Assembly (NCBI GenBank): GCA_965261595.1
Contig: CBDHDG010000007.1
Location: 736,001 to 800,000 of the forward strand
DNA: 64,000 bases
Direction: 5' to 3'
Source of the DNA: a bacterium
GTDB taxonomy: Bacteria > UBA8248 > JACPRG01 > G963555815
Shown: in pieces, positions 53,021 to 63,347 of the stretch
How the letters are laid out: every line of letters begins with the position of its first letter
Numbering within the stretch: position 1 is the first letter of the stretch
Position numbers and translations under genes: made by a program
The notes under the pieces: model-generated
Databases searched by the model: none
Told to the model about the DNA's origin: nothing
Seen by the model: the letters and a program-made list of their open reading frames with translations, nothing else

Positions 53021-54199
53021 ATGATGGCCGTGGGCGGCCGCTTGATCTCGCGCAACTTCGTGTTTCTGGTGGCGGGGAACCTCTTTCTGTTCCTCGCCTA
53101 TCTGAGCTATCAGCTTCTGCCCCTGCACATCAAGGCCTTGGGTGGCGGGGAAACCGACATCGGCTGGGTCATGGGAGCGCCCAACCTGATGTCCGTCGTC
53201 CTCACGCCGGTCTTCGGGATCTTTGTGGACCGATTCGGCCGTAAGCCCTTCCTCCTGATGGGTCAGTGCTGCGTTGCGGTGTCCTGTGGGGGGTTCCTGA
53301 TTGCGGGAGATTCGTTCTTGCTCTTCGCGGCGCTGCGGACGGTGCAGAACGTGGGGGTGGCCATGGCCTTTACGGCTGGCGGGGTGCTCGTCGCCGATAC
53401 GGCGCCCAAAGGCCAATTGGCCCAGGCCCTCGGCGTGTACGGCATGTTCGGCATGGTCGCGCACGCCCTCGCGCCGGCCATCGGCGAGTTTGTGATTTCC
53501 GCGGGAGGCTTCTATTCCCTGTTTGTCTTGACGGTGGCATACGGGGTCGTGGGCCTTTCTCTCGTTTCCAGGGTGAGGGAGGCTGCGCCGCCGGCCGCCG
53601 CCGGGGAATCGGACTCCATATGGCGGGTTTTCATCCGGGCCGGATTCACGCAGATCATGCTCCTGGGTTTCCTGAACGGGGCGGCTTTGGGTACGGTGAC
53701 GACCTACGTCCCCACGTACATCCGGAGCCGGGGCATCCAGTGGATCAGCCTCTTCTTTATCACTTACACCGTGACAGCCATTTTCATCCGGGTGGGTTTC
53801 GGCCGTTTGTCCGACCGGCTTGGACATCGGCGGATCATCGCTCCCGCCTTCTTCGTATTGATCGCGGGGGTTTGGTTTCTGAGCGAGGCCAAGGCCCAAT
53901 GGATGTTCGCGTTGGCGGGCGTTCTCAACGGGACCGCCCACGGGTTCCTCTTTCCAGCCATCAACGCCCTGGCCCTCAATCGTTCCAGCGATGGGAACTT
54001 CGGAAAGGCCCAGTCCCTTTTCGGCGCCGCTTTCAGCGCGGGAATGACATTGGGGGTGTTCTCCCATGGGGTGATCGCGGCCGCCTTCGGCTACAGCGCG
54101 ATGTTCCTTTCCCTGGCGTGCTGGATTCTCGTGGGTCTTCTGATTTTCCTGGTCTGGGATCAGAGAGACCGGCGAGCCTCGGATGGTTACACCGCATAA
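53021..54199 (+). CDS. MFS transporter
   Basis: About 12 TM segments; DRFGRK and GRLSDRLGHR motif A. Confidence 0.9.
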   Translation: MMAVGGRLISRNFVFLVAGNLFLFLAYLSYQLLPLHIKALGGGETDIGWVMGAPNLMSVVLTPVFGIFVDRFGRKPFLLMGQCCVAVSCGGFLIAGDSFLLFAALRTVQNVGVAMAFTAGGVLVADTAPKGQLAQALGVYGMFGMVAHALAPAIGEFVISAGGFYSLFVLTVAYGVVGLSLVSRVREAAPPAAAGESDSIWRVFIRAGFTQIMLLGFLNGAALGTVTTYVPTYIRSRGIQWISLFFITYTVTAIFIRVGFGRLSDRLGHRRIIAPAFFVLIAGVWFLSEAKAQWMFALAGVLNGTAHGFLFPAINALALNRSSDGNFGKAQSLFGAAFSAGMTLGVFSHGVIAAAFGYSAMFLSLACWILVGLLIFLVWDQRDRRASDGYTA

Positions 54200-54277
54200 A
54201 AGAGGTTTCTCATCACCAGGCCGGCGTCCGGCGCCGAGACAAATGTAAAACCTGAGCCACCAGGAATTTGATTTGAT

Positions 54278-54360
54278 CAACAACATCTTGTGTATTTTTG
54301 AAGGTGGGTTCCAAGATATTGTATTTTGTCTTGACAACGTATTCCATAGTAAGTTAAGCT
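54278..54360 (+). promoter_or_regulatory. Tandem NrdR-box-like motifs followed by a sigma70-like promoter
   Basis: Cores CAACATCTTG (54281) and CAAGATATTG (54312), 31 bp apart; TTGACA (54331)-18 bp-TAAGCT (54355). Confidence 0.6.
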
Positions 54361-54368
54361 TCTCCTTA

Positions 54369-54660
54369 GAGCCTGGGCGCCATCGGGACTCGTGAAGTTT
54401 CATCGGTCTGGTGATTTAGTTGGCAGGGGAGGCCTGAAAACGTTGCGGGTTTTGGATGTTGCAGGGCGTCGGAAAGGAGGTGGGGTCTAGGGGAATCTGG
54501 CGTCCCGGTCCGCACGAGGTTTGGTTGCCCGCTTGAACGGGAAACGTTGAGTCGGTTGAATGCGCAGGCCAAGAACCTAGATGAGGTGTTCGGAAATTCG
54601 TCTTCCGGATGAGCGGACAAACGGTGCGGTAGTCGGCGGCAGATAAAGGCGCCCAGGCTC
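54369..54660 (+). ncRNA. Candidate structured ncRNA closed by a 13-bp terminal stem (family not recognised)
   Basis: GAGCCTGGGCGCC ... GGCGCCCAGGCTC; no credible ORF; begins about 8 nt after the putative -10. Confidence 0.45.
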
Positions 54661-54739
54661 GATTCATTTGGTTCGTTTCCCGCCGAAAAAAACGTTGTTT
54701 TCAACCCATTTCTTACCTCTTGGATTCGTGATTATACCC

Positions 54740-54804
54740 TTGACGCAACCGACCACTACATGTAGTAAAACGGACCAAAAAGGCCGAACCACAAGATGTA
54801 GATA
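54740..54804 (+). promoter_or_regulatory. Second NrdR-box-like pair overlapping a TTGACG promoter
   Basis: Cores CTACATGTAG (54756) and CAAGATGTAG (54792); TTGACG at 54740. Confidence 0.55.
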
Positions 54805-54870
54805 TGGAAGACCGAGTTGAGTAGGAGTACTGGAATTGTTGCATGGATTTTTTTATGGAATAGATATTAC

Positions 54871-56538
54871 CCCGCATTTCCCATATGGATCATAAGTTTT
54901 GTCGGACCGAATGCCATTTTCTCGTGTAAGATCAAGGTGTTGGCCTCTCCCTGCCATCATCTTGCGAGGGGACCCAATGGGTGAAGCGAAGAAGGGGGCT
55001 TTGAAGATCCGTTTTGACCGTCGGCTGAGGCTTGAGTTTCACGGAACCAGAATCACTTCGGATGCAGGATTGCTGGCCTGCCGGGAGCTGGATGATGCGC
55101 TGGGTTTGACGGTGAGAGCGCCAGTGCAATTGCAAGAGATCCGTCATGGCCGGAACATCCAGCATGAGTTGGCGCCGCTATTGCGCCAGTCGGTCTATAG
55201 CCGCTTGGCAGGGTATGAAGACACCAACGATGCCGAGCGGTTGGCCCAGGACCCCGCGATGCAAGCCGTGGTCGGCCGCCGAGCGCTTGAGAAGCAGGCG
55301 GCGGGCGCCAACACCCTGAGCCGGTTCGAGACCGAGGTTCTCACCAGGGAGGAGAATCTCAAGGGGCCGGAGCGAGCTGAACCGGGAGTGGGTGGACCGG
55401 GCCATGGCACACTCACCCCATCAGCGAATCATCCTGGACATGGACAGCTCGGAAAGCCCCGTCCATGGGGAGCAGGAAGGTACGGCCTACAACGGCCACT
55501 TTCGTTGCACCTGTTATCACCCTCTTTTTTGCTTTAACCAGTTCGGGGACTGCGAAGGGGCGATGTTGCGCCCCGGCAACGTGCACAGCGCCGATGGCTG
55601 GCGCGAGTTGCTTTCGCCCATCGCGGCCCGGTATGAGCGGGCGGGTGTTCGCCGTTACTGCCGAGCCGATGCCGCCTTTGCGCGCCCGGAGGTCTATGAG
55701 TGCCTGGAAGCGCACAGCTTCCTTTACGCCATCCGCCTTCCCGCCAACGACGTGGTGCAGCGAGAGATCGACTTCCTCCTCACCCGCCCGGTCGGTCGCC
55801 CGCCCAAGAGACCCATCATCTTCTATTACGACTTCCGGTATCAGGCTGGAAGCTGGGACCGTTCCCGGCGGGTCGTGGCGAAGGTGGAATGGCACTCAGG
55901 CGAACTCTTCCCTCGCGTCGGATTCATTGTCACGAACCTGACGGCTCGACCCGAGGGGGTCGTGCACTTCTACAACCAGCGAGGCACAGCCGAGCAATGG
56001 ATCAAGGAAGGCAAGTACGCCCTGAACTGGACACGCCTTTCCTGTCACCGGTTCGTGTGCAACCAGGTGCGGCTCCTTCTCTTCGTCCTGGCGTACAACC
56101 TGGGCAATTTCCTGCGCAGGCTAGCCTTGCCCAGGGGGCTCAAGCACTGGTCGCTGCGAAGCCTCCAGGTCAAGCTCATCAAAATGGGCGGGAGGATTGT
56201 GCGGCACGCCCGGCAGATCATCTTTCAATTGGCCGAAGTAGCGGTATCCAGGGAAGAGTTCGCCATCATCCTGGACCGAATCAACCGATTACGGCCGGTG
56301 CCGGTCTAACCTTGTGCAGAGGGTTCCCGGCAGCATGAGGTGATTGGTTAACGGGTTGAACCGCGAACAAAGGGGACCGAAGGGCGAGGGTCCGCCTTTT
56401 GGGGCAGTCGATGGCCGTCAGCACCTTGTTGCGGAGGGTTGGAAGGCTCTTGACAAACCCATCGGAAGGGGATCAACTGGTTTTCATCGGGAAAGGGGAC
56501 CGGAAACCACCCAAGCAAGTTGATATGGGAAATTCCGG
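54871..56538 (+). mobile_element. IS1380-family insertion sequence
   Basis: TIRs CCCGCATTTCCCATAT / ATATGGGAAATTCCGG (14/16), ~1.67 kb, single transposase gene. Confidence 0.88.
54977..56309 (+). pseudogene. IS1380 transposase, frameshifted near 55370
   Basis: ITSDAGLL, GYEDTND; second frame ILDMDSS, CYHPL, RADAAF, YNQRGTAEQWIKEGK. Confidence 0.85.
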
Positions 56539-56589
56539 TTAAAACAAGCATGAAGGGTATGCCTTTTCTCTAAATGGACTGAAAGACAT

Positions 56590-56900
56590 CAAGGAACGGA
56601 GATGTTTGGACCTGGACCGCTATTTGTGCGGATACCAAACTCGTTCCCTCGTGGATGGCCGGTTATCGGACCCTGAAACACGCAAAAATCTTCTTTGGCG
56701 ATTTGGTGGCTCGGTTAGCGAACCGTGTTCAACTGACAACCGATGGTCACCGCTCCCATCTTCAGGCTGTTGAAGAAACCTTTGGGGCTGATATCGACTA
56801 CGCTCAGTGGGTCAAGATCTACGGCCCTGAGCCTGAGGGTGAGTCGCGGTACAGCCCTGGGAAGTGCAACGGAGCGGAGAGACACAAGATTCAGGATTAC
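56590..56900 (+). pseudogene. IS1-family DDE transposase fragment
   Basis: VWTWTAICADTKLVPSW, LANRVQLTTDGH, FGADIDYAQ.VKIYG, RYSP; lacks both ends. Confidence 0.7.
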
Positions 56901-57270
56901 AGCTGCCCCCCCATTGGGTGAGGGGGACATGATGTGAGGTAGGAATTATCTTGAAGAGGCTCAACGCCCTTCAATATATTCCTTCTCGCAAAATTTACAA
57001 GGCCCAATTTTGGATTGGTGTGTCTTGGTGTCGAGAGGGAACGGTTATGCTTTGGGAGCCAGACTGCATGGATTCTGATCAAAGATACGATCAGACTGAA
57101 CCGACAGAAAAATCCACAGGCCCGGCTGTGGTTACGGTCAACGGAAGCACGATCGCCTACATCCGCTCCCTTTCAGAAGCGATTGGGGAAGCGGCTGTCC
57201 CTCCCTCCACTCGTTCCCTCATTCGTTCCCTTAAGAAATTGGAAGCCGCTTTTGCCACATGTCGCCTGAC

Positions 57271-57321
57271 CCCCTACATCTAGTGGTCAGCCGAGACGCG
57301 GCCGCGATCTACATGTTGTGG
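57271..57321. promoter_or_regulatory. Third NrdR-box-like pair
   Basis: Cores CTACATCTAG (57274) and CTACATGTTG (57309), both followed by TGG. Confidence 0.45.
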
Positions 57322-58007
57322 TCGTCTGCGTCAAGTATATAAGAGCGCTTGGATTTCGTGTAATGCTTGCGGATTGCCTCCTTTTCGCTTGAAAAATCCT
57401 CCCGGTGTTTACTTCTCAGCATCCATTCGTAGTAGCGTCCGCCCGGCAGGTGGTAGACTCTCGTCTTTCTGTTTCCGATGACAGGGGGTCCGAGGGGGGG
57501 GAGGGGGAGGGGGGGAGGGCCTGACCGCCCCCGCTTGGCCGGAAGGCGCGACCAAATGCCCTTTCGAGCGGCCCGGGCCTTTCTTTCCAGCTCGCGAAAC
57601 AGGTCCGCGAATTTCAAGTTGGGCGGATAGGGCGACGCCCTTGCGTATCCCTCCGCCACCAGAAGGGCATTCACAAAAACGCCGTTGGGGAGGTAGACGT
57701 AGGAAAGCAGCCGTCCGTACCTGTCCACGGGGTCGCGGCCGAGCTCAAGCCGGACCGTTTTTCCTTGAATGAGCTTGCGTAGGAACGCGGCGGCCTCTTT
57801 CCCGAAAAACCCGACCGATTTCCTCGGGTGACGGGTTTCAGGGGTGTCGACGCCGATGATGCGCACACTGACGTGGAAGGTGTCGCCATCGACCACGCGC
57901 CTGACTTTTACCGTCTGGGAAAAGGCGGATTCAGCCGCAAGCAAACCAAGAGCGGAAACATGGAAGAGGAAAAATAGGAGAAGCTTGTTTTGGGTCAATA
58001 TGCTCAC
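57309..58007 (-). CDS. Secreted thermonuclease (SNase) family protein with a C-terminal YH-motif domain
   Basis: Signal peptide, VVDGDT, RIIGVDTPE, DRYGRLLSYV, GNRKTRVYH. Confidence 0.88.
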   Translation of the reverse strand: MSILTQNKLLLFFLFHVSALGLLAAESAFSQTVKVRRVVDGDTFHVSVRIIGVDTPETRHPRKSVGFFGKEAAAFLRKLIQGKTVRLELGRDPVDRYGRLLSYVYLPNGVFVNALLVAEGYARASPYPPNLKFADLFRELERKARAARKGIWSRLPAKRGRSGPPPLPLPPLGPPVIGNRKTRVYHLPGGRYYEWMLRSKHREDFSSEKEAIRKHYTKSKRSYILDADDHNM

Positions 58008-62133: not shown

Positions 62134-62258
62134 TCATTGTGTTATTCACGATTGAACCCCTTTGCTTGGGAAAGGTGAATAATCCGCCAAGGCGGCAACG
62201 GAGGTTCGAAAATCCTTGCACGCGAAGGGTGGTGTTTGCCAATAAGGGGAGAGATATC

Positions 62259-62720
62259 ATGAGCCGCTGCCCGCTTCTGTTCACATTCAAAGACATAGTT
62301 TCCGGAAACGGTTTTCTTACGGATATTGAGGCGCACGGCCGCATCCTCGGGGTGCAGGAGGGCGGCGGGGTGTGGATGTACGGTGTCCGGCCGGGCGGCC
62401 TCGCGGCTGGCGGAAAGGACGAAGGGGAAGCCTATTTAGAGTTTCGCCAAGCGTATCGGTCGGTTCTATACGACATCGCTGAGGAGGCTTCCGATTTTCC
62501 TGACTTCAAGGGGCGGGTTGAAAGGTTCTTCCGAGAAACCTGCGAAGAGACCGAAAACGAATGGCGAGAGGCCCTGACCGACGTGAGGGAAGGACGTTTG
62601 AAAGTCGAGGGGCTGCTGATTAAATCGGCGGATTCCAAGCCCTACATCAAGGTCAAACGGATGCAGCGATTCACGGCGAAGGACAACGCTCTGGAACCCC
62701 AAAGATCTCTCGCCGCCTGA
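62259..62720 (+). CDS. Hypothetical protein, HicB-like antitoxin candidate
   Basis: RBS AAGGGGAG; QEGGGVWMYGVRPGGLAAGGKDEGEAY resembles the HicB E-x-GG..PG..G.T..EA pattern. Confidence 0.5.
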   Translation: MSRCPLLFTFKDIVSGNGFLTDIEAHGRILGVQEGGGVWMYGVRPGGLAAGGKDEGEAYLEFRQAYRSVLYDIAEEASDFPDFKGRVERFFRETCEETENEWREALTDVREGRLKVEGLLIKSADSKPYIKVKRMQRFTAKDNALEPQRSLAA

Positions 62721-63298: not shown

Positions 63299-63347
63299 TT
63301 ATCCACATGTTGTGGCAAACTTGTGGATAATTCCCTAGATGTTGACG
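63299..63347. promoter_or_regulatory. DnaA boxes interleaved with a fourth NrdR-box-like pair
   Basis: TTATCCACA (63299-63307), TGTGGCAAA (63311-63319, 1 mismatch to TTWTNCACA), TGTGGATAA (63322-63330); cores CCACATGTTG (63303) and CTAGATGTTG (63335). Confidence 0.6.

Follow-up and report, generated by a model that had tools for sequence, protein, structure and literature searches.

A new family of large folded bacterial RNA preceded by putative NrdR boxes

The window analysed here is a stretch of 64,000 nucleotides (nt) from the genome of an uncultured bacterium (assembly GCA_965261595.1, contig CBDHDG010000007.1, positions 736,001 to 800,000 of the forward strand), and the element under study is an RNA gene at 54369-54672 on its plus strand. 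The gene consists of a structured core at 54369-54660 and a U-rich tail; its inferred start lies at about 54366-54369 and its end at about 54664-54672. That the stretch 54369-54660 is a real gene for noncoding RNA is held with high confidence. The core is bounded by GAGCCTGGGCGCC at 54369-54381 and a 13-nt sequence at 54648-54660 that is 100% complementary to it—the best inverted repeat within 54200-54800—and by our own arithmetic about 0.003 pairs of such exact complements are expected by chance per 600 nt. The perfect 13-bp closing stem of the original prediction, which was made from the letters of the window, is thereby borne out. The plus strand is rich in G, with a GC skew of +0.36 across 54300-54599, and the GC content is 0.56 in the RNA region versus 0.41-0.50 in the flanks. 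No open frame is common to all nine homologues, so that the G-rich, GC-richer island is non-coding as foreseen; 28 of the 33 alignment gaps are 1-2 nt long, and tandem repeats are absent from 54200-54800. The 6.17-Mb genome, searched with a 370-nt query, returned the self-match and otherwise 13 matches of 15-34 nt (E ≥ 0.16), and the gene is thus single-copy.

As judged by sequence searches, the RNA is confined to a single family within a small marine phylum whose members are mostly uncultured. BLASTN detected the region in 5 of 61 genomes, counting that of the window (G000): one genome of the same genus matches at 95% identity and three of the same family at 70-75%. A first covariance model (R1) detected the RNA in 7 of the phylum's 51 genomes—every genome of family f1 (6/6 besides G000)—and in none of the 44 that belong to families f2-f4; one genome, G003, holds a second, diverged copy (G003b). 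The second model (R2), built from nine sequences, recovered the identical seven genomes at E ≤ 4e-13, and its extra weak matches lie in four genomes (E 0.07-0.96), of which the two that were read (L177 and L178; the others being L179 and L180) look coding. Both models comprise the 5' domain only; the closing helix P1, the helix P3 and the 3' arm played no part in searching. Exact 17-mer scans yielded 49 loci in public genome contigs (four being known genomes of the family) and 55 in metagenome contigs. Over the other 100 of these loci, R1 gave one real homologue, on metagenome contig L100, and nine weak matches (E 0.011-0.93). Beside orthologues, in other families, of the SNase-family nuclease gene that neighbours the RNA, the RNA is absent (24 loci, 77.5 kb, filters off; best match 16.1 bits), and three look-alike matches at those loci represent one conserved coding stretch. 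In total, the homologue set comprises nine sequences from four genera, all from uncultured organisms.

The fold of the RNA is supported by covariation. RNAalifold on five sequences predicted 98 pairs, 19 of them with compensatory changes. The curated structure features 78 pairs on a seven-sequence alignment (A7), with the two sequences of genus g2 (G002 and G005) excluded from the count. In it, 89.6% of 546 cells are paired—a percentage inflated because the structure was derived from the same sequences—versus 36-42% when the 3' partners are slid by 1-3 columns. Pairs changed on both sides, a count less affected by this derivation, number 23 versus 4-8 when slid, and 0 of 500 shuffles reached any of five structure measures. 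The closing helix P1 (54369-54381 with 54648-54660, plus strand) forms 13 of 13 pairs in 6 of the 7 sequences and has both-side changes in 6 of its 13 pairs; in G003b most of it is lost (7 of 13 pairs). P1 is followed by GAUUCAUUU, and a U-rich run stands after P1 in all aligned homologues. The 5' domain (54385-54453) is closed by P2 (54385-54395 with 54443-54453), which encloses two hairpins: P2a (54400-54404 with 54410-54414), whose GGUCUGGUGA is kept in 7 of 9 homologues and has 1-2 changes in the other two, and P2b (54419-54424 with 54432-54434 and 54439-54441), with the loop AGGGGAG. The paired cells amount to 89.6% in P2 and 94.3% in P2a. Genus g2 has P1, P2 and the invariant motifs in common with the others, with a 3' half that aligns poorly; by our own reading, the sequence of its P2 is wholly different, yet the pairing is kept. 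A complementarity of 54212-54223 to the P2a motif occurs in G000 only and is therefore taken as chance.

The 3' domain is closed by P3, a long-range helix of nine pairs with 93.7% paired cells, whose 5' strand at 54457-54467 (54457-54462 and 54465-54467) has its partners at 54632-54634 and 54636-54641. Between P3 and the long, irregular arm P5-P9 lies a purine-rich stretch at 54468-54509. The arm (54510-54629, plus strand) carries a variable tip, at which genus g4 has a 10-nt insertion. It consists of P5 (54510-54515 with 54624-54629; both-side changes in 4/6 pairs), P6 (54519-54523 with 54618-54622; 4/5 pairs), P7 (54529-54535 with 54610-54616), P8 (54538-54542 with 54603-54607 and 54544-54546 with 54599-54601) and P9 (54551-54554 with 54587-54590 and 54556-54559 with 54582-54585); P7 and P8 together have both-side changes in 4 of 15 pairs. 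The internal pairs GGCCTG/CAGGCC, TCTAGG/CCTAGA and GTCCGC/GCGGAC and the hairpins CCCG-CTTGAA-CGGG and CGGAA-N7-TTCCG, noticed earlier, can form in the sequence of G000 but are not kept in the homologues. The pseudoknot read from such pairs does not belong to the conserved fold, in which the bases concerned are part of the covarying P2b, P5, P7 and P8.

By its G-U pairs the RNA is assigned to the plus strand, on which the conserved promoter also lies. Canonical cells number 489 of 546 on the plus strand—97 of them G-U—versus 404 of 546 on the minus strand, and the G-U pairs of P1 are possible on the plus strand only. This settles the strand, which a TATAAT on the minus strand at 54731-54736 had left in doubt; that hexamer lies within the end of a mobile element and is absent from the sister genome G001.

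The RNA forms a new family of large folded bacterial RNA; the claim of newness concerns the family and its regulatory context. Rfam 15 gave zero matches to the whole 64-kb window at gathering score, two chance matches at E ≤ 10 within 54150-55000, both beyond the RNA, and two matches on seven homologous loci, again both beyond the RNA. The scan comprised 4227 models, among them raiA motif RNA, OLE, ROOL and GOLLD. With no family matching the window, the region or the homologous loci, novelty stands, and the earlier inference of an unclassified large structured RNA is upheld by an RNA that is conserved in 6 of 6 other family members, covarying, single-copy and found in discrete RNA contigs of matching size. 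Known classes were considered individually. RNase P RNA and canonical 6S RNA have their own copies elsewhere in the genome (C7:682827-683217, 307.9 bits, and C7:230542-230723, 85.6 bits). CsrA is the usual partner of GGA-rich sponge RNAs; a sponge of the CsrB/RsmZ type was rejected, CsrA (PF02599) not being found in G000 (96.7% complete) and the architecture being non-repetitive, without tandem repeats. A type III toxin-antitoxin RNA was rejected on the same lack of tandem repeats within 54200-54800 and on the adjoining nuclease gene, which is convergent and whose product has a signal-peptide-like N-terminus (our reading). The ZTP and cobalamin riboswitches, considered for similar short words, have Rfam models that give no match even at E ≤ 10. 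A riboswitch in general would lie in the 5' leader of the gene that it controls and would have mutually exclusive helices; here the gene that follows the RNA is, in 7 of 9 loci, encoded on the opposite strand, and the alignments show no alternative pairing that is conserved.

Sequencing runs contain the RNA as a discrete entity. According to a run index, a 481-nt query stretch is represented in 20 runs, which come from 11 studies. The fraction of its sampled words that is present is 0.89-1.00, spread over the full stretch, in fourteen runs whose kind is not stated, and 0.55-0.64, approximately the RNA's share of the query, in six metatranscriptomic runs. In four RNA runs from four studies, a single contig each was obtained, of 290, 257, 289 and 271 nt, with zero differing letters. 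These contigs cover 54375-54664, 54379-54635, 54376-54634 and 54383-54631, and the flanks are without cover; the uncovered parts are no evidence of silence. The discrete transcript of about 290 nt anticipated by the original prediction thus finds its counterpart in strand-less contigs of 257-290 nt. In one of the four runs (X19) the contig is circularly permuted—54590-54634 followed by 54376-54619, with the joint at a shared 4-nt GGCG. Template switching of reverse transcriptase on an abundant structured RNA is the likeliest origin of this joint; a circular or ligated form is possible.

The promoter at 54331-54360 on the plus strand features a -35 hexamer TTGACA (54331-54336), an 18-nt spacer and a -10 hexamer TAAGCT (54355-54360). 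TTGACA stands 36-38 nt ahead of the first base of P1 in 9/9 loci, and a TAnnnT hexamer is kept in all nine. The call of a sigma-70-type promoter rests on this conservation and on where the RNA contigs begin, and the RNA's own promoter, TTGACA-18-TAAGCT, is retained from the earlier description. Upstream of it, on the same strand, lie two 16-mers resembling boxes of NrdR: box 1 (54278-54293) with the core CAACATCTTG at 54281-54290, and box 2 (54309-54324) with the core CAAGATATTG at 54312-54321, 21 nt past the box 1 core and 31 bp centre to centre. Published NrdR box cores follow the regular expression C.[AT].[AT][AT].[AT].G, and two 16-bp boxes are separated by a 15-16-bp linker (PMC13584703), which we take as 20-23 nt between cores. 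The pair in G000—CAACATCTTG, 21 nt, CAAGATATTG—has this arrangement, with a linker of 15 bp. A core fitting the expression is present at the place of box 1 in 7 of 9 loci, and a pair with a core spacer of 21-22 nt in 5 of 9; G001 is one base off and G003b has one box. The boxes resemble those before the single ribonucleotide reductase (RNR) gene of the genome, and six genomes of the family have RNR promoters with similar ATnTTGTG boxes. At these RNR genes of the family, one box is situated between -35 and -10 and another downstream, overlapping the transcript start. NrdR itself is encoded in the genome (TIGR00244, 196 bits). Control of the RNA by NrdR appears probable from these sequence features. 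Boxes flanking the RNA on both sides, as first described, reduce to this left pair, which fits the published rule; the right pair is mobile-element DNA. As a separate observation (L138 3680-3960, L170-L174), three NrdR-type boxes lie in the promoter of the family's single RNR gene, and about 200 nt or more of leader precede its start codon.

The upstream neighbour of the RNA is an MFS transporter gene (53021-54199, plus strand; PF07690), and on the other side lies a transposase gene. Beyond the latter, a secreted SNase-family nuclease gene at 57309-58007 on the minus strand (Pfam SNase PF00565, E 6e-26) is convergent to the RNA; it is a conserved neighbour, here situated behind an insertion. 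In G001, G003, G006, G002 and G005, the SNase stop codon stands 34-72 nt past the RNA end as defined by P1, and L100 has the same convergent arrangement by our reading. In G000, SNase was convergent at short range before the insertion and is now 2.6 kb away. Both outer flanks differ in genus g2, with the RNA-SNase pair still together. G004 has no adjacent nuclease gene; an ABC transporter gene follows about 300 nt downstream on the same strand. Nothing was found in support of the RNA as an intracellular nuclease inhibitor, and G004 keeps the RNA without a neighbouring nuclease gene. The diverged paralogue G003b (L137 1501-2597) has retained its promoter, a single NrdR box and the 5' domain. 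The 3' part of its RNA supplies the GGAGG and ATG of a 274-residue protein resembling an outer-membrane beta-barrel (PF13505, E 1.3e-4, below cut-off); at this locus an RNA gene may have turned into an mRNA leader, or the reverse.

The insertion consists of nested mobile DNA at 54731-57347 (no strand assigned), which occurs in G000 only, lies between the RNA and the nuclease gene and is not part of the RNA. Homology to G001, which lacks it, stops at about 54730. A 12/13-bp direct repeat, CTTGGATT(T)CGTG, stands on its two sides at 54719-54730 and 57348-57360, and further copies of its terminal inverted repeats are present in G000 and G006. The insertion carries a frameshifted DDE_Tnp_1_4 transposase (ATG at 54977, open reading frames to 56309), of which L021 has a copy with 99.5% identity and a start at 54867; a second transposase-like fragment lies at 56655-56921 by our reading. 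The insertion struck the last codons of SNase and replaced its stop codon, making the product 11 residues longer than in G001. The right-hand boxes (about 54750-54801) lie in the mobile-element end. These ends belong to a cassette-like element family of about 0.9-1.2 kb, seen at 54731-54801, at about 57277-57347, at C7:8750-9650 of G000 and in at least 10 more places. Each terminal inverted repeat of the cassettes has an inward -35-like hexamer TTGACG and two palindrome-like boxes CCACnAnATGTAG about 35 bp apart, which are NrdR-box-like. The cargo varies: a 160-residue membrane protein, and a HicB/HicA-like pair in three copies (our reading). A 193-residue open reading frame at 62139-62720 has no Pfam match; compared by eye, it is similar to the 213-residue protein that comes first in the cargo of the three HicA-like cassettes. 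At 63303-63344, a box pair fitting the NrdR expression—CCACATGTTG, 22 nt, CTAGATGTTG—stands just before and over the start of a reading frame at 63339 that we read as HhH-GPD-like, similar to endonuclease III. The NrdR regulon may hence reach DNA-repair genes; the expression is loose and this pair perhaps a chance one.

The purine-rich stretch at 54468-54509 (plus strand) is about 40 nt long, has no conserved partner and holds GGAAAGGAGGUGG at 54471-54483 as well as AGGGGAA; by our reading, no helix within it is kept across the alignment. The GGAGGU inside GGAAAGGAGGUGG is Shine-Dalgarno-like and invariant in all nine sequences. Between this platform and the 3' tail of 16S rRNA, 11-16 contiguous pairs are possible, G-U included, with all nine sequences measured against the 16S tail of G000 only. 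The energies of duplex predictions of the platform with RNR leaders (six genomes) and with SNase 5' regions (six genomes) lay within about 1-2 standard deviations of shuffles, with no shared site. A sequestering role for the platform is rated as less likely than not. An improbable special case is an NrdR-gated mimic of a perfect ribosome-binding site, in which GGAAAGGAGGUGG would pair with 13-16 nt of the 16S 3' tail, titrating 30S subunits or masking the anti-Shine-Dalgarno sequence. In such a case, falling deoxynucleotide pools would make NrdR leave the promoter and much nuclease-resistant RNA would be made, tying translation initiation capacity to the supply of DNA precursors. No bacterial RNA is known to us that works as a ribosome-binding-site mimic of this kind.

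The reading we prefer is a stable folded RNA of about 295 nt that is NrdR-gated and acts in trans; taken jointly, and with the identity of the partner excluded, this statement is held with a slight preference. Transcription would start at the conserved sigma-70-type promoter, with the output probably tied to the dATP/ATP state sensed by NrdR. P1 and the U-rich run would end the transcript and protect it. The RNA would then be a scaffold in trans, presenting the purine platform and the invariant loops to a partner—either a protein or an RNA rich in pyrimidines, one candidate being the 16S 3' tail. The great stability of P1 should make this helix constitutive, as would be expected of a finished stable RNA more than of a switch. 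Action in trans is judged reasonably probable.

A number of observations speak against parts of this reading. The convergent SNase gene is conserved in 7 of 9 loci, and a same-strand gene follows the RNA in two loci, G003b and G004; both suit a role in cis better. The pairing run of the platform was reached by 0-7 of 300 shuffles in eight sequences and by 16 of 300 in G003b, a modest excess for a G-rich RNA. The genome contains 142 RGGAGG sites having runs of at least 12, and binding to 16S rRNA is therefore judged improbable. The predicted accessibility of the platform is mixed, with unpaired probabilities of 0.25-0.65. The -10 hexamer is weak: TAAGCT fits TATAAT at only 3 of 6 positions, which is why a consensus promoter scan made no call. 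The box expression is loose, with 188 matches in the genome versus about 118 expected, so that the case for NrdR rests on position, conservation and likeness to the RNR-gene boxes; in genus g2 (G002 and G005) the boxes fail the expression, and diverged palindromes stand in their place. There are 9 nt between the end of the box 2 core and the -35 hexamer, and both boxes lie upstream of the promoter, not over it, so that neither the sign nor the strength of the control can be read off. The assembled (Logan) contigs show neither strand nor true ends, and a carry-over of DNA into RNA libraries cannot be formally excluded; carry-over DNA would not, however, stop at the predicted RNA ends in four studies.

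The strongest rival, which we consider unlikely, is a sensor or attenuator in cis, in which the fold would decide between a stop at P1 and the U-rich run and read-through—antisense into SNase, or sense into the next gene in G003b and G004. The nuclease would then be coupled twice to nucleotide status, with NrdR acting at initiation and the RNA at termination. The short distance from the RNA to the SNase stop codon in five genomes and L100, kept even in genus g2 despite its differing flanks, is what such a device would display, and no terminator-like site was called between the RNA and SNase genes on either strand. The GGAGG and ATG carried by the 3' part of the G003b RNA and the same-strand ABC gene of G004 point the same way, and riboswitch-controlled antisense RNAs reportedly exist in AspocR of Listeria and the S-box antisense of the Clostridium ubiG operon. 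However, a G+C-rich P1 of 13 bp should form whether or not a ligand is present and would make a poor switch. The alignments contain no conserved alternative pairing such as an anti-terminator, and all four RNA contigs end by 54664 with none reading through, although contigs cannot prove absence. In addition, 290 nt exceeds nearly all known aptamers, and the RNA persists in G004 without an adjacent nuclease gene. A highly improbable variant reverses the strand and makes the region a structured 3' untranslated region or terminator region of the SNase mRNA. In most loci the nuclease gene does lead into the region, the fold z-score is -3.35 on the minus strand versus -1.84 on the plus strand, and contigs without strand information accommodate either direction. 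Read in this direction, however, the 97 G-U cells become C-A, with the loss of canonical cells given above, and the promoter conserved in 9/9 loci points the wrong way. The nuclease gene of G000 lies 2.6 kb off behind a mobile element, yet the discrete RNA contigs are identical to G000, and G004 again has the RNA and no nuclease gene.

The remaining rivals give the locus a different nature. An orphan retron-like RNA had been raised by the original prediction. In an msr-msd RNA of this type the closing stem would be the a1/a2 repeats, and the ends are indeed paired by inverted repeats of the right size; the fold is nevertheless multi-domain and not an msr with one long msd hairpin. Moreover, the neighbours at the nine loci are MFS, SNase, ABC, YkgJ-like, PiT-like and outer-membrane protein genes (YkgJ-like and PiT-like by our reading), with no reverse transcriptase gene adjoining any locus, a genome-wide search for reverse transcriptases not having been made; a retron is on balance even less probable than the reversed strand. 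The original prediction also offered a miniature inverted-repeat transposable element, taken here together with an insertion-sequence-end relic; in either, the stem would be terminal inverted repeats. Perfect 13-bp terminal repeats and real mobile elements close by are compatible with it, but the element has one copy in 6.17 Mb, occupies the same syntenic place in four genera and has no flanking direct repeat (TCCTTA before, GATTCA after), and its stem covaries as an RNA helix with G-U pairs, as do the internal helices; this origin is scarcely credible. Of equally negligible probability is a small-protein gene with a structured mRNA, read either from a minus-strand open reading frame at 54366-54704, whose 112 codons span the RNA, or from a short frame behind the strong Shine-Dalgarno-like site. 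No frame is open in all nine sequences, the minus frame having 2-4 stops in G006, G002 and G005; the gaps are those of 1-2 nt described above, and by our reading no start codon is kept 4-12 nt past GGAGG.

For a new family of folded RNA, the evidence is unusually clean considering the few genomes: covariation is found in most helices, and discrete contigs come from four independent marine and sponge-associated studies. If control by NrdR is true, a noncoding output is added to a circuit that senses DNA precursors. The hosts are uncultured, yet the RNA, the promoter and NrdR can be made in vitro. NrdR is described as specific to RNR genes (PMC9110341, PMC13584703), and a literature search covering listings, abstracts and passages of PMC13584703 found no stand-alone structured RNA under NrdR boxes. 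Compared with NrdR-repressed RNR promoters (PMC13584703, PMC9110341, PMC12176259), the promoter of the RNA shares two partly palindromic 16-bp boxes, the kept C4/G13 and A/T positions and a 15-bp linker. It differs in that the product is a noncoding RNA and that both boxes lie upstream of -35.

Among known RNAs, several comparisons can be drawn. Riboswitch-controlled antisense or sequestering RNAs such as AspocR and EutX/Rli55 are similar in having a folded domain, their own promoter and a position convergent to a gene that is possibly regulated; the RNA described here differs by lacking a known aptamer or ligand, by a P1 that looks constitutive and by the lack of a read-through contig. The raiA motif RNA, OLE, ROOL and GOLLD are orphan large structured bacterial noncoding RNAs. 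The new RNA resembles them as a stand-alone gene of at least 200 nt: its conserved helices are numerous, some unpaired bases are invariant, its distribution among bacteria is narrow, it is abundant in transcriptomes and no function has been assigned to it. It differs in host phylum and neighbours and matches none of them in sequence or structure. None of these orphan RNAs is known to us to be preceded by NrdR boxes. 6S RNA acts by sequestering a large cellular machine. Like 6S RNA, the RNA of this family appears to be abundant and stable, and its 5' and 3' ends form a long closing helix; 6S RNA is rod-shaped, whereas the RNA described here is branched.

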